Below, in pieces: positions 18,761 to 58,112 of a DNA stretch of 64,000 bases (positions are counted from its first letter, which is position 1; each line of letters begins with the position of its first letter). The translations under genes and the position numbers were made by a program. The notes beneath the pieces were generated by a model. The model searched no databases and was not told where the DNA came from. It worked only from the letters and a program-made list of their open reading frames with translations. The DNA is from an uncultured Calditrichota bacterium (GTDB lineage: Bacteria > Calditrichota > Calditrichia > Calditrichales > CAYPHA01): NCBI GenBank assembly GCA_964410215.1, contig CAYPHA010000001.1, positions 138,924 through 202,923 of the forward strand. The letters are read 5' to 3'.

Positions 18761-20575
18761 ATGGAAAGAAAAGGTATATTAATTCTGGTGATGACGGCTA
18801 TTGCCAGTGTATTAATTATTCAGTTGCCGGTCTTTGCACAGTATGAAAATGACATTTTTACCGGACCTGTTCAGGCATTCGGTGGGCACGAGACGCAGGG
18901 TGTGGCCTGGGGGGACTATAACGCTGATGGTTACGTGGATTTATACCTTTCCAACGGGCGTGTCCGTGTACCCTGGGAAGGACTCTTATATAAAAACAAC
19001 GGCGATGGTACTTTCGATTCCGTGGCCACTGCCGGTGTCATCGTCACCGAAACCTATATATCCGGTGGCTGTTCATGGGGTGATTATGATAACGACGGGG
19101 ATCTTGACCTGTATGTGGCCAATGCTATTAACGGGTTCAGCACACCGCCGAACAGTCTTTACCTGAATAATAATGACGGGACTTTTTCCAATGCTACCGC
19201 GGGTGACATTGTCGCCTCCGGTAAATCCTATTCAGCAGGCGTAGGCTGGGTGGATTTCGATGAAGACGGCTGGCTGGATGGTTTCAGCAGTGACCTGAAT
19301 CAGTTCAGTAAACCAACCAACCATTCGTTATACCGGAATGAGAAGGATGGCAGCTTTGTTAAGGTGGAAAACCAGTTGACCACGGGTATCTCCGGTCTGG
19401 GAGGATTTTCCTGGATTGATTTTGACATGGATGGCGATATGGATGTCGTGACTCTTTCCGGCGGGATCGGGGCCAGTAACGTTCTGTGGGTTAATAACGG
19501 AAACGACTTTACTTCTGAAATCCTGCATGAAGATATGGAATCCCAGGGAGCAAGCTGGGGCGATTATGACAATGATGGTGATTTTGACCTGTTTATTACA
19601 AACTTCAGCAATGAGACCGGGGCCGAACGCAATATTCTCCTGCGCAATGATGGAACGGAAGCCGATGTCCCCCTGTTCCATCAGGTAACGGAAGGTGATG
19701 TCGTAGCGGATTCTGATTTTTCGCACAGCAGCGCCTTCGCCGACTTCAATAACGATGGTTACCTGGATCTGATTGTTGCCAATGACGGCGGTTATAAAGA
19801 AGGATACCGCAGCCGTTTGTATATGAACAACGGTGCAGGCGAATTAATCAGGTTCGATGGAACCATATTCAGCGATAGCGCCAGTTTCTGCCGTTCGGTG
19901 GCCTGTGCCGATATTGATAATGATGGCGATATCGATGTCATCGTAGGCAGAGACGGTAAAAACCGTCTGTTCATAAACAAGGGTAATGACAATAATTATG
20001 TCCAGTTTTCATTAAGCGGAAATCCCGAAACTGGAATAAATGCATCTGCAATTGGGACTATTCTTAAGCTGAAGGCGAACGGTTTCTGGCAGTTACGTGA
20101 TCTTTCTTCGCAAACCGGACGCGGCGCACAGAACAGCCCGGTCGTACATTTCGGTTTAGGGGATGCCGCTATTGTTGACTCGCTGGTTATCCTGTGGCCC
20201 GATGCAGCCAACACCAGAAGTGTATATACCGGTCTTGCCGTTAATACAATACATCGTTTCGATGCAACAACAATCGATCCGTCCGATAGTCGCGTCCTTA
20301 ATAATTTCCAACTTTATCAGAATTATCCGAATCCGTTTAATCCGGTAACGACCATCTGTTATACTGTTGGGGCGTATGGCAATACGCCCCAACGCGTCGA
20401 ATTAACCATCCATAATATTTTGGGGAAAAAAATGGCGACGCTGGTGGATGGGGTGCAAAATGCGGGATATCATACCGTACAGTGGAATGCGGTTCCGGTT
20501 CCGGCCGGTGTATATTATTACAGTTTGAGAACAGACCTGGGAACAATTACACGGAAAATGGTGTATATAAAGTGA
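18761..20575 (+). CDS. secreted FG-GAP/VCBS-repeat protein with ASPIC/UnbV-like region and a T9SS C-terminal sorting domain
   Basis: Signal peptide. Repeated WGDYDNDGDLDL, WIDFDMDGDMDV and ADIDNDGDIDV motifs. GRGAQNSPVVHFGLGDAAIVDSLVILWPD is UnbV/ASPIC-like. C-terminal LYQNYPNPFNPVTTICY...GVYYYSLRTDLGTITRKMVYIK. Confidence 0.9.
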   Translation: MERKGILILVMTAIASVLIIQLPVFAQYENDIFTGPVQAFGGHETQGVAWGDYNADGYVDLYLSNGRVRVPWEGLLYKNNGDGTFDSVATAGVIVTETYISGGCSWGDYDNDGDLDLYVANAINGFSTPPNSLYLNNNDGTFSNATAGDIVASGKSYSAGVGWVDFDEDGWLDGFSSDLNQFSKPTNHSLYRNEKDGSFVKVENQLTTGISGLGGFSWIDFDMDGDMDVVTLSGGIGASNVLWVNNGNDFTSEILHEDMESQGASWGDYDNDGDFDLFITNFSNETGAERNILLRNDGTEADVPLFHQVTEGDVVADSDFSHSSAFADFNNDGYLDLIVANDGGYKEGYRSRLYMNNGAGELIRFDGTIFSDSASFCRSVACADIDNDGDIDVIVGRDGKNRLFINKGNDNNYVQFSLSGNPETGINASAIGTILKLKANGFWQLRDLSSQTGRGAQNSPVVHFGLGDAAIVDSLVILWPDAANTRSVYTGLAVNTIHRFDATTIDPSDSRVLNNFQLYQNYPNPFNPVTTICYTVGAYGNTPQRVELTIHNILGKKMATLVDGVQNAGYHTVQWNAVPVPAGVYYYSLRTDLGTITRKMVYIK

Positions 20576-32708: not shown

Positions 32709-32801
32709 CCATTTACACTTCTTTTACAATCGCATGTCTGCATTATTCTAAATTTGTTGACATTATTCATCACCGGTTGATTTTACCATAATGGACAGGT
32801 C

Positions 32802-33443
32802 ATGGGAACAGCATTCAGAGATCCGTTAAGTGGTCTGACACATTGTATCGGTGCCGGCTTATCCATTGCCGGATTAGTGTTTCTGCTGTCACGTCCATTC
32901 GGGCCGTTTACGACCTATCATGCGGTTTCATTCGCCATCTTTGGCGGTGGGATGATCCTTCTATATACGTTCAGTACCTTTTACCACTGGCTGCCTTTGT
33001 CCGGGAAAAACCGGGAGCTGTTCCGAAAACTGGATCATATGATGATTTTTGTGTTTATCGCGGCTTCCTATACACCGGTTTGCCTGGTAATCCTGCAGGG
33101 TGCCTGGGGCTGGTCGATATTCGGAACGGTTTGGGGGGTAACCGTTTCAGGGATCATACTGAAAGTCTTCTGGCTACACGCTCCCCGGTTTTTATACACC
33201 TCGATTTACCTGCTGATGGGATGGATTATCGTCATCGGAATATGGCCGCTCTCGCAGAAAATGGATCCGGCGGGCCTGATGTGGATGGTCATCGGCGGAG
33301 TGTTTTATTCCGTTGGGGCTCTCATTTACGCGATAAAAAAACCCGATCCGTGGCCCGGCCTCTTCGGCTTTCATGAAATCTTTCATATCTTCATCATGCT
33401 GGGCAGTGTTTCCCATTACTGGATGGTGTACCGCTATGTCTGA
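32802..33443 (+). CDS. hemolysin III / PAQR-family membrane protein
   Basis: 7 TM segments. Motifs RKLDHMMIFVFIAASYTP and FHEIFHIFIMLGSVSHY. Confidence 0.9.
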   Translation: MGTAFRDPLSGLTHCIGAGLSIAGLVFLLSRPFGPFTTYHAVSFAIFGGGMILLYTFSTFYHWLPLSGKNRELFRKLDHMMIFVFIAASYTPVCLVILQGAWGWSIFGTVWGVTVSGIILKVFWLHAPRFLYTSIYLLMGWIIVIGIWPLSQKMDPAGLMWMVIGGVFYSVGALIYAIKKPDPWPGLFGFHEIFHIFIMLGSVSHYWMVYRYV

Positions 33444-44935: not shown

Positions 44936-45406
44936 ATGGAAAAGGCGAAACATATCGCCCTGGTTGCCCATGATAATCGTAAGAATGTCCTGGCTGAATG
45001 GGTGGAATGGAACTACCGTATACTGCAGGGACATAATATCATATGCACCGGGACGACGGGTAAAATGATCGAAAAGGTTCTTAAAGACAAACACCGCAGA
45101 GAAAAGACGGGTAAACGTATCAATCCGATCAAAAAACTGAAATCCGGACCGCTGGGGGGCGATCAGCAGCTCGGGGCGCTGATAGCCGAGGGCAAAATCG
45201 ATATCCTGATCTTTTTCTGGGATCCGATGGAACCGCAGCCCCATGATGTGGATGTGAAAGCCCTGCTACGGATCGCCGTATTGTACAATATCCCGGTCGC
45301 TTCCAACCGTTCTTCCGCCGATTTTCTGATCTCTTCACCCCTTATTTCAGAGAAATATGAGCCGGAAGAAACGACCTATGCCGACTACCTGAACCGCCCG
45401 ATCTGA
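44936..45406 (+). CDS. mgsA: methylglyoxal synthase
   Basis: [43 protein letters not shown], and [22 protein letters not shown] roughly 20-aa basic insert relative to E. coli MgsA. Confidence 0.92.
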
Positions 45407-45511
45407 TAGCCGGCAAGATTTCACTTTTACGTTATTAAAATAGCATGATTAGACTTTCCTTGTAGGATTCTTTGTCTTAAATTATGGTCAAATTATACGT
45501 CATTTTTTATT

Positions 45512-45655
45512 AACCAAAGAGACACAGAGGTAAAATAATTACTATTATGAGTCACTATATAAAGTTAAATACTGTATAATTATTGTAATGAAAATCAATC
45601 ACACGTATCGTTTCGCTTTATTTGTATATTCATGCACTCTGCACTCTCTGTGGTT
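45512..45655. repeat. small element bounded by terminal inverted repeats, copy B (about 144 bp)
   Basis: Left end AACCAAAGAGACACAGAGG (45512-45530). Right end GCACTCTGCACTCTCTGTGGTT (45634-45655). The ends are an imperfect inverted repeat and match the ends of copy A (2974-3041). Confidence 0.4.
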
Positions 45656-45703
45656 ATAACCTGTTTCGTGAACCAATGATCCATATTCAATTGGAGGGAA
45701 TCC

Positions 45704-45892
45704 ATGTCTGATCATAATTGCGGTGATTGCGCCTTCCGGGCCAAATATGATGCCAATCCGAAATCTTTTCTGGGCCGGCTGTGGCGCTGGCATGCCAACT
45801 GGTGCCCGGGATGGAAAGGTTTTATGGAATCGCTGCAGGAAGAGGAACGCAAACGCATTGCAGAACAGTATGACATGAAAAAATTCCATTAG
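45704..45892 (+). CDS. small Cys/Trp-rich hypothetical protein (62 aa)
   Basis: SD ggaggg 5 nt upstream. Sequence MSDHNCGDCAFRAKYDANPKSFLGRLWRWHANWCPGWKGF..., with a CxxC pair plus a third Cys. Confidence 0.6.
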   Translation: MSDHNCGDCAFRAKYDANPKSFLGRLWRWHANWCPGWKGFMESLQEEERKRIAEQYDMKKFH

Positions 45893-45940
45893 GTCTCGCA
45901 CAGATGAGACTGTATAAAGTTTTCATCGCCGTTCTCTTTT

Positions 45941-46318
45941 GTGTTTATACTTTTTCATGTGAGGAGGAGCCGCGTCTACCTGACCGGTCTCAGCATGGGC
46001 GGCGAAGGGACCTGGTATATTGCTGAGCAGTATCCGGAGGTGTTTGCTGCCATCGCGCCGGTTTGCGGACGTTCCGGTGCCATTGAGCGTATCCGCAGGG
46101 ACGCCGGAAAGATCACCGGCATTCCGACCTGGATCTTTCACGGCGCGAAAGACCGTGTTTACAGCGTGGAGGAGTCCGATGTTATGTTCAAGCGGTTGTG
46201 GGATGTCAATCCGGATCTGCGTTATTACCGCTATCCGGACCTCGGGCACGGGGCAACCCACGCTGCAGCCTACCGGGATAGTGCGCTGTATCGATGGTTC
46301 TTGGAGCAAAAGAAATAG
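45941..46318 (+). pseudogene. N-terminally truncated alpha/beta-hydrolase (carboxylesterase/peptidase S9-like) fragment
   Basis: It begins right at the nucleophile elbow RVYLTGLSMGGEGTW and continues through IPTWIFHGAKDRVY and DLGHGATH to a normal C-terminus. The roughly 100-150 aa normally preceding the elbow are absent. Only a GTG start is available. Confidence 0.6.
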
Positions 46319-46456
46319 AAGAATGAGCAGTGACTGTTCTTGCAACGCCCACCTTTTTATGACGCAAATCCTGCCTGATTTAAGAAAAATTCTCATCACT
46401 CTGGGTGGAACAATTCGTAAGTATGTCCTATATTGATCGGAAAAAGGTTACATTAC

Positions 46457-47068
46457 ATGAATGAATTTTTCCGTTCCACAACCCTGTTACTGGTGCTGCT
46501 CAATCCGTTCCTGGTCATTGTCTACCTGGTCGATATCGTCCAGAAGATAGACCGGGCCAGATTCCACAGCGTGCTGATCAGGGCGGGCGTGATTTCAGCC
46601 TTTGTCTTCTGCACCTTTGCCATACTGGGTGATGCGGTCTTTTCCGGCATCATGCAGGCCCAGTTTGCGTCGTTTCAGATTTTCGGCGGTATTATTTTTT
46701 TTCTGATCGGCACCCAGTTTGTCTTCCGCGGACCAGCTGCTATCGAAATCCTCAGGGGGGAGTCTAAGCACATCGCCGGCGCCATCGCCATGCCGGTGCT
46801 GATCGGTCCGGGTACGATCAGTGCCAGCGTCGTTATCGGTCAACGCCTGGATCCGCTGCCGGCCTGTGCCGCCATCGTTTTTGCTTTGATCGTCTGTCTC
46901 GTTGTAATCGCCCTGCTGAAGGCGCTGCATGACCATGTGCGCCGGCGCAGAGAGGAACTGATCGAACGCTATATCGAGATCGCCGGACGCATTACGGCCC
47001 TTTTTGTCGGCACCATCGCCATCGAGATGATCATGCAGGGTATTCGTACATGGGTGGCAAAGTTTTAA
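46457..47068 (+). CDS. MarC-family (UPF0056) integral membrane protein
   Basis: Six TM segments, LLVLLNPF near the N-terminus, and the IGPGTIS motif. ATG at 46457 is preferred over the TTG at 46433. Confidence 0.85.
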   Translation: MNEFFRSTTLLLVLLNPFLVIVYLVDIVQKIDRARFHSVLIRAGVISAFVFCTFAILGDAVFSGIMQAQFASFQIFGGIIFFLIGTQFVFRGPAAIEILRGESKHIAGAIAMPVLIGPGTISASVVIGQRLDPLPACAAIVFALIVCLVVIALLKALHDHVRRRREELIERYIEIAGRITALFVGTIAIEMIMQGIRTWVAKF

Positions 47069-47159
47069 TGAACGAAAGGGAAATCGTCTGGCTGTCCTTT
47101 TGAACCATTTCTTCTTATCTTTGGGATGCCTCTATTAATCCGTTATCCGGGAGGTTCAC

Positions 47160-48896
47160 ATGATGCCCTCACCGATTCTAAAACAAAGATTTAGCTCCAT
47201 CGATAATCAGGACTACGGTGACTGTCAGATGCTCCTGGGCAGATACGATTTTAAACTGTTCACTCTGATTATACAGCAGATTCCCAAGGATCCCTATGCG
47301 CCGCCCCATACGGGCATCTACCGCATCCAGGCCCGGCGGGATGATCCGCGGATCGTGGCCCTGAAGACAGCTGACACGGTGCAGACCATTGCCAGTGCGG
47401 ATTTTCTGGCCCGCTGTTTTTTTCGGGCCGGGCAGGATATCTGTAAAGGCATCCGGGGAACCGGATACAGCGGACTGATTACGATCAACGAGCCCGGCCA
47501 GGCCATTCTGGAACGGAACAGTGTGATTATCACGGATCAGTTGATTGAGATCCGCTGCTTCCTGGGCATTCCGGCCGACGGGAGAAAAATCAATGCCAAC
47601 CTAGCCAAGACCATGTTTTTCGAAGAACTGCCCGAAATTGTCCGTGCGGCCCTGCTGAAGGAGAATATTAATTACGACAGCTACACGCACCATATTAATG
47701 CGATGGAGGACGCCGAATTTATACGTCATCAGCTTAAGGAACGCGGTCTCGTCGCCTTTATCGCCAATGGTGCCATCCTGCCCCGGGAAAGCGGCACCAG
47801 CGACCGGCCATTGGATTCCGGCAAGGCCGTGCCGTTCAAAGCACCGCAGGCCTTCGGGGTCCAGATCGAGCTGCCCCATCATGGCCGTATCAGCGGGATG
47901 GGCATTCCCGAAGGAATAACCCTGATCACCGGCGGAGGCTATCACGGCAAGTCAACCCTGCTCCGGACACTGGAACGGGGCATTTACAATCATATCCCCG
48001 GGGACGGCCGGACGTATTGTGTCTCCAATCCGCAAACGGTAAAAATACGGGCCTACAGCGGCCGCAGGGTGGTTAAAACGGATATCTCCCCGTTCATCCG
48101 GAATTTGCCTTTCAAGCAGGACACAACGGCTTTTTGCACGGAAAATGCCAGCGGAAGCACATCGCAGGCGGCTACTATCATCGAAGCCATCGAAGCAGGG
48201 GCCGGGGTGCTGCTGATGGATGAAGACACCTGTGCCACCAACTTCATGATCCGCGACCGCAAGATGCAACAGCTCGTCCGCAAGGAGGATGAACCGATCA
48301 CGACCTTCATCGACCGGGTGCGTCAGCTCTACGCAGAAAAGGAAATCTCAACCATCCTTGTTTTAGGGGGTATCGGGGACTATTTCGATGTGGCCGATCA
48401 TGTCATTCAGCTCGTCAGCTATGAACCGCGCGATGTAACCTCTGAAGCGCACCGTATCGCCGAAACCTTTCCGGAAAAGCGCATGACTGAGGATGCAACT
48501 TATCCGATACAACTGCGAGAACGCATTCCCCTTGCCGGGAGCATCGATCCCTGCAATCACTATGGTAAATTCAGCATCTACGCAAAGGAAGTTTTTCGTC
48601 TGAATTTCGGTGGCGAGACTGTTGACCTGACGGATCTGGAGCAGCTTATTGAGCTTTCACAGACAAAAGCACTGGGTTTTGCCGTCGAATACGCCAGAAA
48701 ATATATGGATGGGCATTTAACGCTTCGCGAAGTGGCTTTAATAGTGCAGGAGGATATTGAAAAAAACGGTTTGGATGTATTGAGCGACCGGATTTCGGGT
48801 CATTTTGCGCGTTTTCGTTCACTGGAGCTGGTTTCTGCATTGAACAGGATCAGGGGCTTCGATGTCATTCAGGCGGGTACTCAGGGTGACAACTGA
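47160..48896 (+). CDS. predicted ABC-class ATPase (COG3044-type, uncharacterised family)
   Basis: SD gggagg. GGGYHGKSTLLRTLERGIYNHIPGDGR (P-loop variant), LLMDEDTCATNFM (Walker B-like), and N-terminal YGDCQMLLGRYDF. Confidence 0.8.
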   Translation: MMPSPILKQRFSSIDNQDYGDCQMLLGRYDFKLFTLIIQQIPKDPYAPPHTGIYRIQARRDDPRIVALKTADTVQTIASADFLARCFFRAGQDICKGIRGTGYSGLITINEPGQAILERNSVIITDQLIEIRCFLGIPADGRKINANLAKTMFFEELPEIVRAALLKENINYDSYTHHINAMEDAEFIRHQLKERGLVAFIANGAILPRESGTSDRPLDSGKAVPFKAPQAFGVQIELPHHGRISGMGIPEGITLITGGGYHGKSTLLRTLERGIYNHIPGDGRTYCVSNPQTVKIRAYSGRRVVKTDISPFIRNLPFKQDTTAFCTENASGSTSQAATIIEAIEAGAGVLLMDEDTCATNFMIRDRKMQQLVRKEDEPITTFIDRVRQLYAEKEISTILVLGGIGDYFDVADHVIQLVSYEPRDVTSEAHRIAETFPEKRMTEDATYPIQLRERIPLAGSIDPCNHYGKFSIYAKEVFRLNFGGETVDLTDLEQLIELSQTKALGFAVEYARKYMDGHLTLREVALIVQEDIEKNGLDVLSDRISGHFARFRSLELVSALNRIRGFDVIQAGTQGDN

Positions 48897-48959
48897 TCCA
48901 TTTTCCATGTACCTGCCGGTTCTATTATAAAACGGAAGCGATCGTGCAGCCGGTTTTAG

Positions 48960-49823
48960 TCATTTTCCCTGTCTTGTGAGACCCGGTTCCAGCAGACCGC
49001 TGTAAAAGGTTGCCAGTTGCTCTTTATATACATTTTTCAAAGGCAGGTCGTTGTGTCCGCCGTCTTCGATAATATAAAGGTTTTTCCGGGAAACAACCGC
49101 TTTTTTATAAAGATCTTCAGCCATTTCCTTTGGTGTTACCTGATCATCCTCTCCGGTAATGATCAGAACCGGTTTCTCCAGCTTCTTAATTTCCTCGCGA
49201 TTACCCACCTGAAGCAGCTCCTCATCCAGCTTAAAAGATATGAAGGGTTTCAGGAAAAAGGGCACCAGTCGATCGGTCAGGTCTTTTACATCGGTAACCG
49301 GGCTCTCCAGCACCACTCCGGCGGCCGGATTCTGATTGGCCAGCCAGAGAGCCAGCATCGAGCCCATGGAATGTCCGTGGATAATCAACTGATCCGGATG
49401 AATCTGTTTTTGTGTCGTAATGTACTGGTATGCGGCCTGAGCATCGTGCTTGAGTCCGTCAACGGATGGCCGGCCGGAACTCTGACCATAACCCCGGTAA
49501 TCAAAAGCGAACACATTCATTCCCTGCTCGTAAATAGAACCCAGAATATCCCCGGCGATGGCCAGCAGAAATCCGTTGCCGCCCAGGTACAGAACTGTAC
49601 CGCGGGCATCTTCCCGGGTCAGATACCATGCATGTATCAGCGTTGTATCATCCGGCTGGAAGGTGATTTCGTCAACCGCGATGCCGGTTGATTTTAACAG
49701 ATCCGCGGTCACTGTTTTTTTAGCGTCAAAGGCATCCTGTTCTTTAATATTAATGGTCTTACAGGAATTCAATGAAAACAACATCAGTAACACCATCAGC
49801 AATTTTAAAAAAAGCCTTTTCAT
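48960..49823 (-). CDS. alpha/beta-hydrolase lipoprotein
   Basis: Lipobox FSLNSC. LYLGGNG, nucleophile elbow IHGHSMGS, and GEDDQVTP with GGHND. Confidence 0.85.
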   Translation of the reverse strand: MKRLFLKLLMVLLMLFSLNSCKTINIKEQDAFDAKKTVTADLLKSTGIAVDEITFQPDDTTLIHAWYLTREDARGTVLYLGGNGFLLAIAGDILGSIYEQGMNVFAFDYRGYGQSSGRPSVDGLKHDAQAAYQYITTQKQIHPDQLIIHGHSMGSMLALWLANQNPAAGVVLESPVTDVKDLTDRLVPFFLKPFISFKLDEELLQVGNREEIKKLEKPVLIITGEDDQVTPKEMAEDLYKKAVVSRKNLYIIEDGGHNDLPLKNVYKEQLATFYSGLLEPGLTRQGK

Positions 49824-50177
49824 GTCCAGTTTTTCCCCCGTTTATGCATAATATAGTTTTACCACCACATTGTGGCACGTTCGCCTTTAAACGGACCGAC
49901 AATGTTTTTTGTAATCCATCCCCCGTAAAATCCCCCTGGTTGCGTTGAAAACCTTGAATTCACCTTCGACAATTTTTGGTACTTTCCTTAATTAATTTTA
50001 TTCTATGAACAACCTTTATCTTAATTATAAACCTGGCGGAAATGTAAAAGTTCGTCTAGAAATTGTCAAGAAAAACGAGTCTTTTATTATTGTGTTTTTT
50101 CGGAGAACAAATTGATATATTCCATAATATATTGATAATAATTAAATTAAATGCATAACATCTTATATGATTTTATT

Positions 50178-50206
50178 TTGACAATTATTAGACATTTATG
50201 TATATT
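50178..50206 (+). promoter_or_regulatory. near-consensus sigma70 promoter placed to give a leaderless MerR-B12 transcript
   Basis: TTGACA (50178-50183), 17-nt spacer, TATATT (50201-50206). The ATG at 50212 lies only 5 nt after the -10 hexamer, and no SD is present. Confidence 0.55.
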
Positions 50207-50211
50207 CGGTC

Positions 50212-51135
50212 ATGGAAAGTGAAAAAAAATACCCCATTAAAGTCGTATCGAATAAGACCGGATTGAGTTTGCACGTAATCCGTGCCTGGGAAAAGCGCTA
50301 CAATGCGGTTCAGCCGCGGCGTACGGAAACAAACCGGCGCCTGTACAGTGAAGAAGATATCACCCGGCTTTCGTTATTAAAAGAGGCTACCGGGCAGGGG
50401 TACAGTATCGGGAACATCGCCGGGCTATCTCTTTCCGAGTTGCAGCAGATGATGGAGACGGTAAGGGAGGGCCCTTCAAGGGAAGTCTCGGCGGAACATT
50501 CAGCGGATCCTGCCGGTTTTTATAAAGAGTCATTGGACGCCATATTCGCATTTGATGCAAATACGTTTGAAAAAACGCTGACCCGGGCCTCGGTTTTGCT
50601 GACGCAACCGGTTTTGATCGATAAAGTGGTTGTTCCCGTTGTTGAACAGATCGGACGCTTATGGCGGGATGGAACGCTCCGGATCATGCACGAACATATG
50701 GCTACGGCGATCATGAAAACGTTTCTGTCCAATCTCAGGAACGGTTATCGTCCGGCTCCTAATGCGCCGGGGCTTATAGTAACGACACCAATTGGTCAGC
50801 TTCACGAACTCGGTGCACTGATTTCGGCGCTTGTGGCTGCAGCGGAAGGATGGGATGTGACCTTTCTTGGCGCAAACCTTCCCGCTGAAGAAATTGCTGC
50901 GGCGTCGATTACAAAGAAAGTCAAAGCGGTAGTGCTCAGTATTGTTTACCCGGCTGATGATCCATTATTATACCATGAACTCGGGAATATACGGAAACTG
51001 GTTCCGGAAAATGTACAGATTATAATGGGGGGGAGGTCGGCGGTTCATTATAAAGAGGCGATCGATAAAATTCACGCGCAGTTGAGTACGGATTTGTCCG
51101 ATTTCCGTGACCGTCTTCAGGTTATCGAAAAATAA
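50212..51135 (+). CDS. CarH/LitR-type MerR-family regulator with adenosylcobalamin-binding photosensor domain
   Basis: MerR HTH YPIKVVSNKTGLSLHVIRAWEKRY. W151-x9-E161-H162 (LWRDGTLRIMHEH). B12 motif QLH198ELG, then x41, S243IV, x27, G273G. Confidence 0.85.
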   Translation: MESEKKYPIKVVSNKTGLSLHVIRAWEKRYNAVQPRRTETNRRLYSEEDITRLSLLKEATGQGYSIGNIAGLSLSELQQMMETVREGPSREVSAEHSADPAGFYKESLDAIFAFDANTFEKTLTRASVLLTQPVLIDKVVVPVVEQIGRLWRDGTLRIMHEHMATAIMKTFLSNLRNGYRPAPNAPGLIVTTPIGQLHELGALISALVAAAEGWDVTFLGANLPAEEIAAASITKKVKAVVLSIVYPADDPLLYHELGNIRKLVPENVQIIMGGRSAVHYKEAIDKIHAQLSTDLSDFRDRLQVIEK

Positions 51136-51147
51136 GGACTCACATTT

Positions 51148-51355
51148 ATGAATAGACGAACATATCTGGTAATCGGTGCTTCTTCAGGTATTGGTAAACA
51201 GGTTTCCGAACAGCTTTTAAAAACCGGGAACCGTGTCATAGGAACCTGCAATAAAAACAGGACGGAAGGTTCGAATGATAAGATCACCAAAGTCCTCATG
51301 GATAAGCGGGCACATATTTCATGTTGATGGCGGCATGTCATCCTTTAAGGTTTAA
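51148..51355 (+). pseudogene. collapsed SDR gene (N-terminal Rossmann end joined to the C-terminal end, frameshifted)
   Basis: MNRRTYLVIGASSGIGKQVSEQLLKTGNRVIGT...KVLMD runs into a stop. In another frame it continues as SGHIFHVDGGMSSFKV*. About 180 aa of a normal roughly 250-aa SDR are missing. Confidence 0.65.
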
Positions 51356-51358
51356 CCG

Positions 51359-52786
51359 ATGAAAATCCTTCTAACCGGTGCCACCGGATATATTGGTCAG
51401 AGGCTGTTGCCCTCACTTCTGCAGGCGGGCCATGAGGTTGTATGCTGTGTCCGTGATACCTCCCGGTTTGACCTGAACCGTTATCATACGGAAAAGATAC
51501 AGGTTATTCAGACTGATTTTCTTGATGTATCTACTTTGTCTGATATCCCGAAAGACATTGATGCCGCCTATTACCTGCTTCATTCCATGGCGACGACGTA
51601 TAGTAATTTCGAAGAGATGGAGCAACAATCGGCCGGGAATTTTAAAAGGGCGCTGGAAAAAACGGATGTCAGGCAGGTTATATACCTTAGCGGTATTGTC
51701 AATGAAAATAAACTTTCCAAACACCTGCAATCCCGGAAGAAAGTGGAGGAGATACTCGCATCCGATACCTACAGCCTGACAACCCTGCGGGCGGGTATCA
51801 TCGTCGGATCCGGCAGTGCTTCTTTCGAGATCATTAGGGACCTGGTCGAAAAATTACCGGTTATGATCGCGCCTAAATGGCTGAACACCAAATCCAATCC
51901 CATCGCTATCCGTAACGTGATTGCCTTTCTGAAAGGCGTTTTGATGCGGCGGGAAACCTTCAACAAAAGTTTTGATATCGGCGGACCGGAAGTGCTTACC
52001 TACAAGGATTTATTATTGAAATTTGCCGGCATCCGTCATTTAAAACGAATGATCTTTACCGTTCCGGTGATGACGCCGCGATTATCTTCCTACTGGCTGT
52101 ATTTTGTGACGTCCACCTCCTATGACCTGGCCAGAAACCTGGTGGACAGCATGAAGGTGAACGTTGTCTGCCGGGATCATACCCTGGCAGAGTTGCTTGA
52201 CATTAAGCTGATTTCCTATGAAGAGGCCATTCGCCGGGCTTTTGACCGTGTCGAGCATCACCAGGTGGTATCGAGCTGGAAAGATGCACTGAATATGACG
52301 TCACTCGATCATAACCTTACCAGGTATTTCGAAGTGCCGGTATACGGCTGTTTCAAAGATGTGCATACCTTGAAAATAAACGATCCGGAGCAGGTTCTGA
52401 ATAAAATCTGGTCTATTGGTGGAACCGAGGGCTGGTATCATGCCAATTGGCTCTGGGAACTGCGGGGATTTCTGGACCAATTGGTCGGTGGTGTTGGATT
52501 GCGCCGGGGACGGAAAAACCAGACTGAACTTGCCAATGGGGAGGCACTTGATTTCTGGCGCGTGCTGATTGCCGACAAAAAACAAAAGCGATTACTGCTG
52601 TTCGCCGAAATGAAACTGCCCGGAGAAGCGTGGCTGGAATTTAAGATCGATACCGATAATGTATTGCATCAGACGGCAACATTCCGACCCCTGGGACTTC
52701 TGGGACGGTTGTACTGGTATGCAGTTTTACCTTTTCACGGTTATGTTTTCAAGGGAATGATACGTAAACTGGCCCAAGAATCATAA
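51359..52786 (+). CDS. NAD(P)-binding atypical SDR fused to a DUF2867-like C-terminal domain
   Basis: ILLTGATGYIGQRL. C-terminal ALDFWRVLIADKKQKRLLLFAEMKLPGEAWLEFKI is typical of the DUF2867 family as I recall it. Confidence 0.8.
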   Translation: MKILLTGATGYIGQRLLPSLLQAGHEVVCCVRDTSRFDLNRYHTEKIQVIQTDFLDVSTLSDIPKDIDAAYYLLHSMATTYSNFEEMEQQSAGNFKRALEKTDVRQVIYLSGIVNENKLSKHLQSRKKVEEILASDTYSLTTLRAGIIVGSGSASFEIIRDLVEKLPVMIAPKWLNTKSNPIAIRNVIAFLKGVLMRRETFNKSFDIGGPEVLTYKDLLLKFAGIRHLKRMIFTVPVMTPRLSSYWLYFVTSTSYDLARNLVDSMKVNVVCRDHTLAELLDIKLISYEEAIRRAFDRVEHHQVVSSWKDALNMTSLDHNLTRYFEVPVYGCFKDVHTLKINDPEQVLNKIWSIGGTEGWYHANWLWELRGFLDQLVGGVGLRRGRKNQTELANGEALDFWRVLIADKKQKRLLLFAEMKLPGEAWLEFKIDTDNVLHQTATFRPLGLLGRLYWYAVLPFHGYVFKGMIRKLAQES

Positions 52787-52982
52787 AGGATCCAATCCTG
52801 ATACTATGAAACCGGTTACTCTCGTATTTCCGCGCCTTCCCCGGTATGTACTGAAAAAACACCGGTTTTTTGTGAAGTGAATACGATTCCTCTGAATTCA
52901 TTCGAGGGATATTTACGTCGGCTCATCGGGTGCCGCGAGTTCATCAGTGGTTTACGGAAACGTTTATTAAGGACCTGACGGG

Positions 52983-53759
52983 ATGAAATATACTGATCAA
53001 ATGGGGTATAAGCTCACCCTTAAAGATACGCCCCGCCGGATCGTATCTCTGGTACCTTCCATAACGGAATTGCTCTTTGATATGGGCCTGGAAAATGAAA
53101 TCGTTGGTATTACGCGCTACTGTGTATACCCGAAAGACAAAGTCGGCGGGAAACCCCGTATCGGCGGAACAAAACTATTCGACTATGGCCAAATCAACCT
53201 GTTGAAGCCGGATCTGATCATCGCGAGTAAGGAAGAGAATTACCCGGAAGGTATCCATTGGTTGAAGCAACGCTATCCGGTCTGGATGAGCGATGTCAAT
53301 ACACTGGAAGATGCCCTCGAAATGATCCGAACCATGGGCCGGATGCTGAACCGGTATAATGTCGCTGAACAAATGGCCGGTTTGATCAACAGGGCAATGG
53401 AAAAACTCTCCTTTACACCTCAGATAAAAACGGCCTACCTGATCTGGAAAAATCCTTTTATGGTGGCTGGTGGTGCAACGTTTATCAATGACATGCTGGA
53501 GAAGTGCGGATTCCGCAATCTATTCAGGGAAAGGCCACGTTATCCTGTAATCACAATAGAAGAGCTGAAGGGGGCGGAACTGATTATCTTGCCATCGGAG
53601 CCCTATCCATTTGGAGCTGACGACAGGGAATCGATTAAAATGGTATATCCGGGAAAAAGGATTGAGAGGGTAGATGGGACCTGTTTTTCCTGGTATGGGA
53701 GCCGGTTATTGAGGGCGGCCGATTATTTCCGGGATTTTCGTTGCAAAATTGCAAAATAA
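52983..53759 (+). CDS. BtuF-like cobalamin/iron-complex binding protein (class 8 periplasmic-binding fold) without a signal peptide
   Basis: PRRIVSLVPSITELLFDMGLENEIVGIT and KPDLIIAS. 258 aa. The N-terminus MKYTDQMGYK is not hydrophobic. Confidence 0.75.
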   Translation: MKYTDQMGYKLTLKDTPRRIVSLVPSITELLFDMGLENEIVGITRYCVYPKDKVGGKPRIGGTKLFDYGQINLLKPDLIIASKEENYPEGIHWLKQRYPVWMSDVNTLEDALEMIRTMGRMLNRYNVAEQMAGLINRAMEKLSFTPQIKTAYLIWKNPFMVAGGATFINDMLEKCGFRNLFRERPRYPVITIEELKGAELIILPSEPYPFGADDRESIKMVYPGKRIERVDGTCFSWYGSRLLRAADYFRDFRCKIAK

Positions 53760-54191
53760 TCAATTGTCGCGGCAATCCGGGCAGACGACGTTAAAATGGA
53801 CACTGTAGTAGAGCAGATCGTTCTCCTCAGTCACGGACTGCGGGATGCTGATTTTATCCAGGCCTTCGTCAAACAGGTCGACCACCTTTTTACATTTGAC
53901 ACACACGACATGATGATGTTGTTCGGTCACCGGATCGTAACGTATGGTATTGTGCAGGTTCGTGACGAGTGAGACAATGCCGTTTTTTTCAAACGTTTCC
54001 AGGGTTTTATAAACGGTGGCAAACGAGATCGTCGGATTCTCGGTCTTTATTTTCTTATGGATATGTTCCGGGTTGGGATGTGAATTGTCATTGACCAGCG
54101 CCTTGAATATAGCCAGACGCTGAGGTGTTACACTGAGATTGCGTTCCCTGCAATTCTGTATAAACTGATCGATTTGTTTTTGATCCTTCAT
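53760..54191 (-). CDS. Fur-family metalloregulator (Fur/PerR/Zur class not resolved)
   Basis: LSVTPQRLAIFKAL, FATVYKTLETFEKNGIV, HHHVVCVKCKKVVD and CPDC. Confidence 0.9.
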   Translation of the reverse strand: MKDQKQIDQFIQNCRERNLSVTPQRLAIFKALVNDNSHPNPEHIHKKIKTENPTISFATVYKTLETFEKNGIVSLVTNLHNTIRYDPVTEQHHHVVCVKCKKVVDLFDEGLDKISIPQSVTEENDLLYYSVHFNVVCPDCRDN

Positions 54192-54258
54192 CGCTCACCA
54201 AATAAGTGTATAAACATTTTTTTATAGTAATGGTTATCGCTTCAAAATGCAATAACAA

Positions 54259-54277
54259 AATAATGATTTTGAATATT
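54259..54277. promoter_or_regulatory. Fur-box-like 19-mer upstream of the fur-family gene
   Basis: AATAATGATTTTGAATATT matches GATAATGATAATCATTATC at 13 of 19 positions. It lies in the fur/lipoprotein divergent region. Confidence 0.35.
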
Positions 54278-54381
54278 TCTTGAGAACCAACCATTGATTC
54301 AGATACAAATTTCTCAAGTAAATTTGTTGTTTTAGATGAAAAATTGTTATTTTAATCCGCAAGCAATATTGAGGTGATACG

Positions 54382-54843
54382 ATGAAAGTAAATAAGATAA
54401 TGGCAGCTGTTGTTCTGCTGGGTGCCTGGTTTTTTTATTCAGGTTGTGAAGATAATCCCATTTCTGAACTGAGCGGTGACGAGAACTATGAATTAAATTT
54501 ACGGGTCTTTAACGATCTCGCAGCATGGCCAGGCCAAATCCTGACCATTACGGCAACGGACAGCATCTATTATGAAAGCCCGGAGTTTAAGATCCGGAAA
54601 CGTTTTGATGAAGAAGACAAAAGTGCATTATTGTATTTTCTTCAGCGGCACCGTTTTTTTTCTCTGGATGAAGGTTATGGCAGCGGCGGGATGATGGCTG
54701 ATAAAACGTACGACATTTCCTATGAATCCGCATCCAAAACAAAGATGATCATAGCTGATCGTGCCCTTGTACCTGATGAATTAAAACAGATCATTGAATA
54801 TTTGGAAGACATTATCACAGATTTGGAAAACAGTGCTTCCTGA
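54382..54843 (+). CDS. hypothetical lipoprotein
   Basis: SD gaggtga and lipobox FFYSGC. 153 aa. Confidence 0.6.
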   Translation: MKVNKIMAAVVLLGAWFFYSGCEDNPISELSGDENYELNLRVFNDLAAWPGQILTITATDSIYYESPEFKIRKRFDEEDKSALLYFLQRHRFFSLDEGYGSGGMMADKTYDISYESASKTKMIIADRALVPDELKQIIEYLEDIITDLENSAS

Positions 54844-54864
54844 CAGGATAAGGAAAGATCCTGC

Positions 54865-55296
54865 ATGGAAGCCTTAACAGATTTGGGGTATATCGGTCTT
54901 TTTACCGCTTCATTTCTTGCTGCGACGATATTGCCTCTGAGCTCGGAGGTCGTATTGTCAGTTTTGCTGCTGAATGGCTATAATCCTTCCCTGTCCATCG
55001 GTGTCGCAACCGCCGGTAATGTAAGCGGTGCCCTGCTCAATTATGCCATCGGCCTGTGGGGCAGTGCGTTCCTCGTCCAGAAAGTTCTTCGTATTTCACA
55101 ACGTGAAATGAAAAACGCACAGGAACGATTCAAAAAATGGGGCGTCATCAGCCTCTTTTTTGCCTGGGTCCCGGTCATCGGCGATCCGCTGACCGTCATT
55201 GCCGGTGCACTGAAAGTCAGGATGTCCCTCTTTCTGCTGCTGGTGACCGCAGGTAAGTGTATGCGGTATGTTCTGATATATCTTGCGATTAAATAA
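54865..55296 (+). CDS. YqaA/DedA-related membrane protein
   Basis: YIGLFTASFLAATILPLSSEVVL, WVPVIGDPLTVIAG, and 4 TM segments. Confidence 0.8.
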   Translation: MEALTDLGYIGLFTASFLAATILPLSSEVVLSVLLLNGYNPSLSIGVATAGNVSGALLNYAIGLWGSAFLVQKVLRISQREMKNAQERFKKWGVISLFFAWVPVIGDPLTVIAGALKVRMSLFLLLVTAGKCMRYVLIYLAIK

Positions 55297-55397
55297 AGGG
55301 TTACCCGGTAACGGATTATAACAGATCCATGAACGGTCCATTCTGACAAACATCGTATTGTTTTATTTATATAACGATAGGCCCGGAGGTTTCATTT

Positions 55398-58112
55398 ATG
55401 AAGTTACGAGTTTTAATGATTCTTTTACTGACACAATTACATGCCGGTGAAAAGCGGCCGCTTACTTTTCAGGATATTATGACGTTTAATGAAATCAGCT
55501 CACCGGTGATCTCTACGGACGGTAACTGGGTGGCTTATGGTCTCCGGCCTGACCGTGGTGACGGCAACGGTATCGTGGTGCATACGGAACATGCGACGAC
55601 CTATGAAGTGGAAAGAGGGGAAAAGCCTCAAATCACCCGTAACAATGCCTGGGCCGCTTTTCGTGTTGTCCCGCCCATGCTGGAATCGGAAAACGCCGGG
55701 AAGGAAGATAAACCTGAAGCCGGTTTGACGCTGGTACAGCTTGATACAGGGAAGCGTTATCATTACAATAATGTGGAACAATATATCCTTTCTGAGGATG
55801 GAGAATGGCTCGCTGTTCATTTTACGGATACGACAGCATCAAAAAAAAATGCGTCACCACTTAAAACGGGGACAGAACTGCTGCTGAACTACCTTCCGGA
55901 TTCGATGACCATTTCGATTCCTTTTGTGACCGAATATGCGTTCGATTCCTCTTCAACCAGCCTGGCGGCCGCGATCCGTGATACGGCATCGCTTGAAGAC
56001 CGGCTCGTTCGGATAAGTCTGAATACGGATAATCCGGAAATGACAGTAGTTACGGCGGATACGTTTACGTGTTACAGTGCGCTCAACTGGGACAGGCAGG
56101 GTAGCCAACTTGCTTTCGTCGCCTCTCTTTATGATAGTGCCGGTTATCCGCAACCGGGCAGGATTGGCTACTGGAACAGGGAAGATGGCTACAAAGTGCT
56201 TCTCACCGGAAACAGCGTCGGCGTGGGTTGGACGATTCCTTTCAAAAACGAACTGACCTTTACGCGCGACGGGTCACGGTTGTTCTTCGGCCGTCTGCCG
56301 GAACAACGATATAATGATCTGTATACGGAAAAGGAAGAGGTGAAATTCGATACGGTAACCAGTGAAAGCACACTTTTGAAGAAGACAGATGTGGATATCT
56401 GGCACGGGAAAGACGGACGGATTAATTCACACCAGAAGAAGGAATGGGAGAAGAATGCCGGCCGGACGTATCCATCCGTTTATCATCTTGAAAAGGACCG
56501 GTTTGTCGCGTTGACTGATGAAGCGATGCCACATCTGGAATGGAACGAAAGCAGCCCTTATGCCATCGGTCGCAGTGATGAACCCTACCTGAAATACATC
56601 ACCTGGGAGGGTCATTTTTATGATTATTACCGGGTTGACCTGGGAAGCGGAAAGCGTGATAAAATTGCCGAACGCGTGACCCGGTCAGCAGATTTTTCAC
56701 CGGGCGGTAACTATGTTATCTATTACGACGCAACAGACTGGTTTTCGGTCAATCTGCAGACTTTGGAAACGACTAATCTTACGAAGGAACTGGACGTACC
56801 GTTTGAAAACGAGGATCATGACTATCCGATGCCGGCACCCGGATATGGCACGGCCGGCTGGTGTGCAGATGATGCGGCTGTCCTTATTTACGATAAATAT
56901 GACATCTGGAAATTCCCTCTCGATGACGGAGAACCCATGCGTGTTACGGAAGGCCGTAAAGAGGAGATGACGTTCCGTATCAAAACCCTGGATCCGGATA
57001 AAGAGTTTTTCGGCCCCGATGAAAAAGTGCTCCTGGAGGGCTATCATCAGAAACAGAAATATACCGGTATTTACAGCACGCATCTGAATAACCGGTATAC
57101 GAAGAAACTATTTCAAAACAAGAGCAAGGCAAAGCTGATCGCTAAAGCGGAAGACGGCGACCAGCTTCTTTACAGTGAGCAGACTTATAACCGGTTTCCA
57201 GATTTACAAATTACTGATGGCAGCTTTTCTTCTTCAAAACAAATTACGGATGCCAATCCGCAGATGGCCCGATTCCTGTGGGGTGATGCGGAACTGGTGG
57301 AATGGAAAACAGAAGACGACATCGACTTGCAGGGGGTATTGATCAAGCCGGCGAACTATGAAAAAGGTAAGCGCTATCCCGTACTGGTCTATTTTTACCG
57401 GTTTTTTTCGCAGCGATTGTACGATTTCAATCAGCCGCAAATCAACCACCGCCCCTGCTTTCCGCTTTACACCAGCAACGGTTATGCGGTCTTCCTGCCC
57501 GATATCCGATTCGAAATCGGCGCACCCGGGCCGTCAGCCACAAAGTGCCTGGTCTCCGGCATTGACCACCTGATCGGGGAGGGAATCGCCGATCCGGATG
57601 CCATCGGTCTGCACGGTCATTCATGGAGCGGTTATCAGACGGCTTTTGTGATCACGGAGACAGATAAATTCGCCTGTGCCGTCGCCGGGGCACCGGTCTC
57701 CAATATGACCAGCGCCTATAGCGGTATCCGCTGGGGCTCGGGACTAGCCCGCCAGTTTCAGTACGAAATGACACAGAGCCGTATAGGCGGCAGCCTGGTG
57801 GAAATGCCGGAGAAATACATCGCCAACTCACCGGTGTTTTTTGCAGAACAGATAAACACACCTTTATTACTCATGTTCGGTGATGTGGATGAAGCCGTAC
57901 CCTGGTATCAGGGCATTGAATTGTACCTTTCCCTGCGCAGACACGATAAAGATGTAATTTTCCTGCAATACCGCGATGAGCCGCATCATTTGAAGAAATA
58001 TCCCAACAAACTGGATTATGCAAAGCGGATGAAGGAATACTTTGACTATCATCTGAAAGGCGCTGAGCCGGCGGCATGGATTACAAATGGTGTTCCTTAT
58101 TCGGGAAAATAG
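55398..58112 (+). CDS. secreted S9-family serine peptidase (beta-propeller plus alpha/beta catalytic domain)
   Basis: SD ggagg and a signal peptide. Catalytic region GLHGHSWSGYQTAF, MFGDVDEAVP and YRDEPHHL. 904 aa. Confidence 0.9.
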   Translation: MKLRVLMILLLTQLHAGEKRPLTFQDIMTFNEISSPVISTDGNWVAYGLRPDRGDGNGIVVHTEHATTYEVERGEKPQITRNNAWAAFRVVPPMLESENAGKEDKPEAGLTLVQLDTGKRYHYNNVEQYILSEDGEWLAVHFTDTTASKKNASPLKTGTELLLNYLPDSMTISIPFVTEYAFDSSSTSLAAAIRDTASLEDRLVRISLNTDNPEMTVVTADTFTCYSALNWDRQGSQLAFVASLYDSAGYPQPGRIGYWNREDGYKVLLTGNSVGVGWTIPFKNELTFTRDGSRLFFGRLPEQRYNDLYTEKEEVKFDTVTSESTLLKKTDVDIWHGKDGRINSHQKKEWEKNAGRTYPSVYHLEKDRFVALTDEAMPHLEWNESSPYAIGRSDEPYLKYITWEGHFYDYYRVDLGSGKRDKIAERVTRSADFSPGGNYVIYYDATDWFSVNLQTLETTNLTKELDVPFENEDHDYPMPAPGYGTAGWCADDAAVLIYDKYDIWKFPLDDGEPMRVTEGRKEEMTFRIKTLDPDKEFFGPDEKVLLEGYHQKQKYTGIYSTHLNNRYTKKLFQNKSKAKLIAKAEDGDQLLYSEQTYNRFPDLQITDGSFSSSKQITDANPQMARFLWGDAELVEWKTEDDIDLQGVLIKPANYEKGKRYPVLVYFYRFFSQRLYDFNQPQINHRPCFPLYTSNGYAVFLPDIRFEIGAPGPSATKCLVSGIDHLIGEGIADPDAIGLHGHSWSGYQTAFVITETDKFACAVAGAPVSNMTSAYSGIRWGSGLARQFQYEMTQSRIGGSLVEMPEKYIANSPVFFAEQINTPLLLMFGDVDEAVPWYQGIELYLSLRRHDKDVIFLQYRDEPHHLKKYPNKLDYAKRMKEYFDYHLKGAEPAAWITNGVPYSGK

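Follow-up and report, generated by a model that had tools for sequence, protein, structure and literature searches.

A probable CarH/LitR-type adenosylcobalamin photoreceptor heads an eroded photoprotection operon in an uncultured Calditrichota bacterium

In the 64-kb stretch of DNA analysed here (the window), which comes from an uncultured Calditrichota bacterium, the open reading frame at 50212..51135 on the plus strand encodes a 307-aa protein that is very likely a class I CarH/LitR-type repressor with adenosylcobalamin (AdoCbl) as its light-sensing chromophore. The original prediction of such a photoreceptor is supported by the domains, motifs and fold of the protein, by the operator upstream of its gene and by the gene neighbourhood of the subfamily to which it belongs; AdoCbl binding, the oligomeric state and the light response would be as in the homologous CarH proteins of Thermus thermophilus, Bacillus megaterium and myxobacteria. 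The operon downstream of this carH-like gene has been eroded, and what it once contained can be read from relics in the window and from a close relative in which the ancestral operon is intact.

The protein consists of a MerR helix-turn-helix (HTH), a bundle of four helices and a Rossmann B12-binding domain, and the corresponding matches (MerR_1, B12-binding_2 and B12-binding) all scored above the Pfam gathering cut-offs. The MerR-type winged-helix DNA-binding domain covers residues 7-72 (50230..50427, plus strand; PF13411, 63 bits, cut-off 21.6), the B12-binding_2 domain covers residues 108-175 (PF02607, 40 bits), and the Rossmann B12-binding domain, which includes S243-x-V245 and G273-G274, covers residues 189-282 (50776..51057, plus strand; PF02310, 38 bits). 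CarH homologues have been defined by the co-occurrence of Wx9EH and D/ExHx2G-x41-SxT/V-x22-27-GG, and the Wx9EH cap has been described as the feature that sets photoreceptor CarH apart from other B12 binders (PMC8156234; PMC9304148). In the window protein, the adenosyl-group cap W151-x9-E161-H162 is located at 50662..50697 (plus strand), with codons determined by script to start at nt 50662 for W151 and 50692 for E161 and to occupy 50695-50697 for H162; the loop Q196-L-H198-E-L-G201, located by residue script and supported by alignment to T. thermophilus CarH (TtCarH) and by homologue conservation, is encoded at 50797..50814 (plus strand). The regular expression.H..G-x41-S.[VLI]-x27-GG had a single match in the protein, with spacings of 41 and 27. 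Every residue named in the original prediction, which had listed a MerR HTH, Wx9EH and a B12 motif with canonical spacings, was confirmed by script. His198, which is aligned to H177 of TtCarH, is the predicted lower axial cobalt ligand. The recognition helix of the window protein reads R24-A-W26-E27-K28-R29-Y30; the MerR recognition-helix motif of CarH is RxWERRY (PMC9304148).

Sequence and fold comparisons both identified TtCarH as the best match in the PDB. A phmmer search against all PDB sequences returned T. thermophilus CarH entries as the best matches (E 2e-25), with a gapless alignment that takes in the four-helix bundle and extends through the His loop, so that neither motif is interrupted and W151, E161, H162 and H198 are positionally equivalent to TtCarH W131, E141, H142 and H177. 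For the TtCarH sequence in the homologue alignment, reliance was limited to the region aligned by phmmer. An AlphaFold2 model built on 40 homologues (mean pLDDT 87.7) was compared with the PDB by Foldseek; the top 44 matches were all TtCarH structures, and the cobalamin-binding domain of the model superimposed on that of TtCarH with a TM score of 0.85 and an rmsd of 2.5 A. The best NCBIfam match was the equivalog model NF052513, "HTH-type transcriptional repressor CarH", over the full length of the protein (124.5 bits, E 4.6e-36); the curated cut-off of 400 bits was not reached, which places the protein among homologues beyond the curated equivalog. No record was returned when the exact protein sequence was looked up.

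A homologue search identified 2,642 proteins at E <= 1e-10 among 8,000 scored candidates, and the best 120 of these were used to assess conservation. All 120 have the same domain set, save one that lacks only the MerR (PF00376) match, and W151, E161, H162, H198, G201, S243, G273 and G274 are invariant among them, as are R24, W26, E27 and R29 of the recognition helix; Y30 is found in 119/120, and Lys replaces the second Arg of RxWERRY in 114/120. Residue 196 is Gln in 116/120 and His in the other four, so that none of these homologues has an acidic residue two positions before His198. The original prediction had named Gln in place of Asp/Glu at this position as the only deviation from CarH; the substitution is real, but it is a hallmark of the subfamily, and Arg152, at the position of TtCarH His132, had been overlooked. 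The residue that follows the cap Trp is Arg in 45, His in 39 and Lys in 25 of the 120 homologues. A His directly after this Trp is common in CarH but does not define the family. In TtCarH, His132 is the upper Co ligand of the bis-His light state and couples photochemistry to the full conformational response (PMC10442372). Conserved extras of the subfamily are His160 (98/120) and Arg157 (119/120). The Gln-type subfamily, which is large and is marked by G-Q-x-H-E-x-G and a conserved His160-Glu-His162, with the window protein additionally lacking His after the cap Trp, was found in Calditrichota, Ignavibacteria, Latescibacterota, Poribacteria, Gemmatimonadota and Verrucomicrobiota. Judged by these alignments, the differences from characterised CarH appear to mark a distinct subfamily, not another kind of protein. 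Gln196 could hydrogen-bond the cobalt-ligating His without carrying a charge; more tentatively, the Gln-type subfamily may use a light-state chemistry without a His132-type bis-His adduct, and perhaps another oligomer switch, under the same operator logic.

CarH operators are built from 11-bp direct repeats in tandem, nnnnTnnACAn, and the -35 sequence TTGACA usually falls within one of these; B. megaterium CarH (BmCarH) uses four full repeats and TtCarH three, and experimental mapping has also revealed operators that combine one or two full repeats with pseudo-repeats (PMC9304148). Pattern search, promoter scan and cross-locus conservation identified a predicted CarH operator, TTGACAATTATTAGACA, over the -35 box of carH at 50174..50206 (plus strand), and this operator is consistent with those published (PMC9304148; PMC8156234). 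It starts with two perfect tandem 11-bp repeats, tattTtgACAa (50174-50184) and ttatTagACAt (50185-50195); a pseudo-repeat, which includes the -10 box, comes next. The carH promoter (TTGACA at 50178-50183, a spacer of 17 bp and TATATT at 50201-50206) is the best sigma-70-like site in the region and matches at 11/12 positions. We infer that carH and the genes downstream of it are co-transcribed and, because the ATG at 50212 follows the -10 box after only 5 nt, that the carH mRNA is leaderless. A near-identical site in the opposite direction, 125 bp upstream, was recovered by pattern search and promoter scan as a divergent promoter with a predicted twin operator, TTGACAATTTCTAGACG (50041..50069, minus strand; repeats 50069-50053, -10 box TACATT 50046-50041); it points to a DUF427 relic and a hydrolase gene.

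Within the window, TnnACA-N5-TnnACA occurs five times against 1.19 expected, and the core TTGACANNNNNTAGACA at <=1 mismatch has only two matches against 0.27 expected by chance; both, the carH site and its minus-strand twin, lie in the intergenic region upstream of carH, and a search of the 64 kb for other copies of the operator at this stringency thus yielded these two alone. A further TnnACA pair at 32712-32728, upstream of an HlyIII gene, lies about 40 bp upstream of the likely -35 box, has no TTGACA/TAGACA core and is probably a chance occurrence. The repeat pair is conserved among homologous loci, with 58/83 having one within -200 to +25 of the start codon (background 0.010 per 225 bp). 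A group of 24 loci, which come from Calditrichia, Ignavibacteria, Latescibacterota and other phyla, has the pair at -31 to -42 with the consensus TTGACAAnTATTAGACAa, followed by a -10-like ttAttTT; many homologous loci share with the window a further pair on the minus strand, at roughly -150 to -190. A strict repeat pair was found upstream of carH in 55/79 loci and upstream of four kinds of divergent neighbour, namely idi (10/10), fasciclin (15/17), RpoD-like sigma (10/12) and ECF sigma (8/14) genes, as compared to 12/847 for all other genes. Direct CarH control of the standalone photolyase and DUF2867 genes found at other loci is unsupported, as these have a strict pair of their own in 0/19 and 1/13 cases, respectively. 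An Rfam scan of the whole window found no cobalamin riboswitch or other RNA.

Downstream of carH, reading frames and Pfam domains agree with the original prediction of a short-chain dehydrogenase (SDR) relic followed by an NAD(P)-binding/DUF2867 gene. The SDR relic (51148..51355, plus strand) carries an internal deletion of about 500 bp and a frameshift; its N-terminal GASSGIG frame starts at 51148 and runs into a premature stop, and a different frame, which extends to 51355, holds the C-terminal HVDGGMSSFKV. The NAD(P)-binding (NAD_binding_10) plus DUF2867 gene (51359..52786, plus strand) encodes a protein 98% identical to that of the close relative and is the only intact downstream member of the carH operon. 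It is followed by an FeS-BCP/CryPro (6-4) photolyase gene that survives only as a relic (PF04244; 52806..52951, plus strand); its two fragments, 52806-52833 and 52839-52951, are equivalent to nt 1-28 and nt 820-933 of the intact gene and are 80-86% identical to it in the relative. In the divergent unit, the last 86 nt of a DUF427 gene (PF04248; 49859..49944, minus strand) are left, the rest having been deleted, and an alpha/beta hydrolase gene (48960..49823, minus strand) is the remaining member. A domain search identified the gene at 52983..53759 (plus strand) as encoding a binding protein of TroA-like (BtuF-related) type that lacks a signal peptide; no terminator-like site was found between 52786 and 52983, and transcription from the carH promoter may read through into the gene. 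As a conserved CarH partner, this gene was considered and rejected, since no other surveyed locus has a homologue of it.

The closest homologue of the window protein (P0001) is a 97% identical CarH encoded on the metagenome contigs L001 and L002, which are organized as two divergent units. The leftward unit consists of DUF427, alpha/beta hydrolase and PNPOx genes; the rightward unit consists of carH, an SDR gene (234 aa), an NAD/DUF2867 gene (475 aa) and a gene for a PF04244 protein (493 aa), separated by gaps of 12, 3 and 18 bp. The PF04244 protein of L001 matches FeS-BCP/CryPro (6-4) photolyases and CryB (7ykn, 4dja and 3zxs, E 1e-72 to 6e-78). Shared segments of the window and L001 are 94.6-98.9% identical. 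Relative to L001, the SDR relic arose by the internal deletion in the 234-aa gene, and the PNPOx gene, present in L001, is absent from the window; on this comparison, the SDR, photolyase, DUF427 and PNPOx genes have been removed or gutted by deletions in the window strain. Exact look-up of the DUF2867 and binding-protein sequences identified one further contig, L085, from another read set, which is 100% identical to window positions 50735-56267; because this contig, which may come from the same sample, shows the same eroded layout, that layout is not a one-off assembly error.

This decay raises the question of whether carH itself is a functionless leftover of a photoprotection locus that is being lost, not yet disabled by mutation; we consider this improbable, though of the competing explanations it is the one that fares best. 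It would account for the loss of the SDR, (6-4) photolyase, DUF427 and PNPOx genes in comparison with a 95-98% identical relative and for the T-to-C change in the leftward -10 box (TACATT in the window, TATATT in the relative), and the omega of 0.22 for carH against the relative, calculated from only about 20 substitutions, is a weak test of selection. However, the carH reading frame is full-length, all 8 amino-acid substitutions relative to P0001 fall outside the motif residues, both the operator and the promoter next to carH are intact and fit the cross-phylum consensus, and the DUF2867 gene, taken as co-transcribed, is under clear purifying selection (omega 0.11). A working CarH repressor is the better reading of these data, even if the decay of its operon means that light sensing might be on its way to becoming useless to this lineage.

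A survey of the genes within 10 kb of carH at 77 homologous loci on genome contigs, where more distant homologues are encoded, places the window operon in a wider context. A carotenoid, photolyase or CFA-cluster gene is present at 56/77 loci: crtI at 29, crtB at 25, a lycopene cyclase gene at 21, a class II photolyase gene (TIGR00591, E 5e-109) at 19, and CFA synthase and amine oxidase genes at 12 each, with DUF1365 at 10 and DUF1295 at 9; amine oxidase, DUF1365, CFA synthase and DUF1295 co-occur as one cluster. In tblastn searches of the 64 kb for genes of these kinds, representatives of crtI, crtB and lycopene cyclase, of class II photolyase, and of CFA synthase, DUF1365 and amine oxidase had no match, and the photolyase relic at 52806-52951 was the one trace of photoprotection in the window itself, the intact gene being found in the 97% identical relative. 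The original prediction had regarded the light-regulated output as atypical. This relic, the intact operon of the relative and the 56/77 loci with photoprotection-type genes instead indicate that the output is an eroded form of the typical one. DUF2867 genes lie within 10 kb at 12/77 loci, and the window locus raises the possibility that NAD(P)-binding/DUF2867 proteins belong, so far unrecognised, to bacterial light regulons; literature searches found no relevant connection between DUF2867 and light, or between CarH and the phyla of the subfamily. An SRPBCC-like protein is often encoded downstream of Ignavibacteria carH (cluster c7), and no similarity of it to the DUF2867 domain was found.

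The same neighbourhoods bear on a second alternative, that the protein is a cobalamin-responsive regulator without a light response that senses B12 availability, for instance for the TroA/BtuF-like gene. The B12-binding domain, the location of the BtuF-related gene 1.8 kb downstream within possible read-through, and Gln196 and Arg152, which are unlike the photochemically characterised TtCarH, would all fit this explanation; yet the Wx9EH adenosyl cap is invariant, the recurrent neighbours of the subfamily are photoprotection genes, and the binding-protein gene, found beside carH at no other surveyed locus, has been reduced to a relic in the close relative, which together make a light-independent B12 sensor quite unlikely. 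In CarA, the Trp of Wx9EH is missing along with flanking residues (PMC9304148), and class II LitR has kept the four-helix bundle and lost the Rossmann B12 domain (PMC9758184). A CarA-like or class II-V LitR-like regulator, which would need no B12 but a partner such as an anti-repressor or a LOV protein, is therefore very improbable even though the MerR DNA-binding domain and the operator type are common to such paralogues, as the window protein has both the Trp within a complete Wx9EH and the PF02310 Rossmann domain with all ligand residues, these residues are invariant, and no LOV or CarS-like gene was detected near carH. The points that count against the CarH assignment are Gln196, Arg152, the NF052513 score below the cut-off, the presence of only two full repeats in the operator, the failure to find a B12 riboswitch or any crt, photolyase or CFA-cluster gene in the 64 kb, and the decay of the operon around carH.

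By analogy with characterised CarH proteins, a mechanism can be proposed. In the dark, the AdoCbl-loaded protein would oligomerise, and the oligomer would occupy the tandem 11-bp TnnACA repeats over the -35 boxes of two back-to-back sigma-70-type promoters, both of which lie within the 388-bp region upstream of carH. Near-UV to green light would cleave the Co-C bond, causing the oligomer to dissociate and both promoters to open. The rightward promoter would then produce a leaderless transcript of carH, providing autoregulation, and of the downstream genes. The ancestral output would have comprised the SDR, the NAD(P)-binding/DUF2867 protein and the (6-4) photolyase on the rightward side and DUF427, the alpha/beta hydrolase and PNPOx on the leftward side; the present output would be limited to carH itself, the DUF2867 protein, the hydrolase and perhaps the TroA-like binding protein.

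Light sensing in a heterotroph of this kind, which had been put forward as ecologically informative, is expected; CarH homologues number in the hundreds and are widespread in non-phototrophs (PMC8156234). The findings on the window CarH do not overturn current understanding and extend a well-understood photoreceptor family to Calditrichota-like heterotrophs. What is modestly new is the Gln-type subfamily, the cross-phylum operator with its leaderless design, the recurrent DUF2867 partner and the gene-by-gene erosion of the operon. Gln in place of Asp/Glu and Arg in place of His132 represent natural variants at positions relevant to CarH photochemistry and to optogenetic engineering, the cross-phylum operator TTGACAAnTATTAGACA inside a leaderless promoter could serve for predicting light regulons in uncultured lineages, and a photoprotection operon dismantled gene by gene, with the sensor surviving, provides a small, clean case of regulon erosion.

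Among known systems, TtCarH (PDB 5C8A/5C8D/5C8E/5C8F) is the closest point of comparison. It shares with the window protein the three-module architecture and, in gapless alignment, the Wx9EH cap and the His-x2-Gly...SxV...GG motif, and it shares with the window locus an operator of tandem 11-bp TnnACA repeats with the -35 sequence TTGACA within one of them. The two proteins are, however, only about 25-27% identical; Glu175 and the light-state upper ligand His132 of TtCarH are replaced by Gln196 and Arg152, His160 and Arg157 are conserved extras of the window subfamily, and the recognition helix reads RQWERRY in TtCarH and RAWEKRY in the window protein. In addition, the TtCarH operator has three full repeats as compared to two full repeats plus pseudo-repeats in the window, and the target operon is a carotenoid operon in TtCarH as opposed to a photolyase/SDR/DUF2867 operon at the window locus.

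The CarH proteins of M. xanthus, Cystobacter, Sorangium and Haliangium and the CarH/LitR of B. megaterium (class I LitR) are AdoCbl-dependent repressors with the same two signature motifs; their operators have one to four full repeats plus pseudo-repeats over the -35 and/or -10 boxes, and divergent promoter pairs are common (PMC9304148). These proteins have D/ExH where the window protein has Gln-x-His, their oligomeric state varies (tetramer or dimer), and they regulate crt genes directly, whereas no crt gene lies within the 64 kb of the window. In Pseudomonas, class II LitR controls light-inducible photolyase/CryB-type, SDR, FAD-oxidoreductase and fatty-acid-modifying/CFA-type genes that lie beside the regulator (PMC9758184), an output comparable to that of the ancestral window operon and to the clusters of amine oxidase, DUF1365, CFA synthase and DUF1295 genes beside the homologues; class II LitR works with a LOV protein on which it depends and is devoid of the Rossmann B12 domain, whereas the window protein has a complete B12 module.

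The stretch of the window from 45200 to 56700 could be compared over approximately 12 kb with two metagenome contigs from a relative (L001 and L002), with 95-99% identity outside the missing pieces. Seven gene-sized pieces of these contigs are absent from the window, specifically (i) 280 bp within an esterase gene, of which the fragment at 45941-46318 is the remnant, (ii) OmdA and DUF123, (iii) PNPOx, (iv) DUF427, (v) the middle part of the SDR gene, (vi) most of the length of the (6-4) photolyase gene, and (vii) a hypothetical gene of 281 aa; the ratio of large deletions to substitutions is unusually high. Gene erosion is reciprocal: the window has an intact TroA-like gene (52983-53759) at the end of the B12-photoreceptor operon, and its counterpart in L001 (11541-11878) has been reduced to three collinear fragments, corresponding to aa 1-22, 76-100, and 184-258. 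It follows that the ancestor carried both the photolyase and the TroA-like gene, the stop codon of the former overlapping the start codon of the latter (ATGA). The TroA-like protein is a "helical backbone metal receptor" by its match to NF038402 and weakly resembles BtuF; inspection by eye revealed no signal peptide at its N-terminus, which suggests a cytoplasmic location. TroA-like homologues were not found in the remaining surveyed carH loci.

With regard to the leftward promoter, which is divergent from carH, the -10 box (50041-50046) reads TACATT in the window and TATATT in the relative, where the DUF427 gene persists; TACATT may represent a weakening mutation. A further TnnACA-N5-TnnACA pair, TTTACACTTCTTTTACA (32712-32728), is located in the intergenic region upstream of an HlyIII-family gene (32802-33443), with a TTGACA box approximately 40 bp downstream of the pair, and probably reflects chance.

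Among 77 loci surveyed for neighbors of carH homologues, proteins combining NAD(P)-binding and DUF2867 domains were found at 12; proteins of this kind occur in the window (51359-52786) as well as in L011, L014, L022, L054, L060, L062, and L065. Their closest solved relatives are complex I subunits of the NDUFA9/39-kDa type (E 8e-9), and no literature tying them to light was found. Three further groups recur beside carH homologues across L005-L084: fasciclin-domain proteins and TonB-dependent receptors, each at 18 of the 77 loci, and, at 13 of them, DUF4397 proteins that carry T9SS sorting tails. Of 17 fasciclin genes, 15 have an operator in common with the carH homologue; none of these three groups has a known light connection. 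The original prediction had described the organism as T9SS-bearing, which the window supports only in part, through a weak, sub-cut-off match (E 1e-4) to the Por_Secre_tail C-terminal sorting domain in an FG-GAP/ASPIC protein (18761-20575).

Finally, across L005-L084, genes encoding ECF and RpoD-like sigma factors were present at 14 and 12 of the 77 loci, respectively, often divergent from the carH homologue with a common operator region. Standalone photolyase and crt genes in these loci lack a repeat pair of their own, and the overall arrangement suggests a cascade from regulator to sigma factor, as in Streptomyces LitR-LitS.
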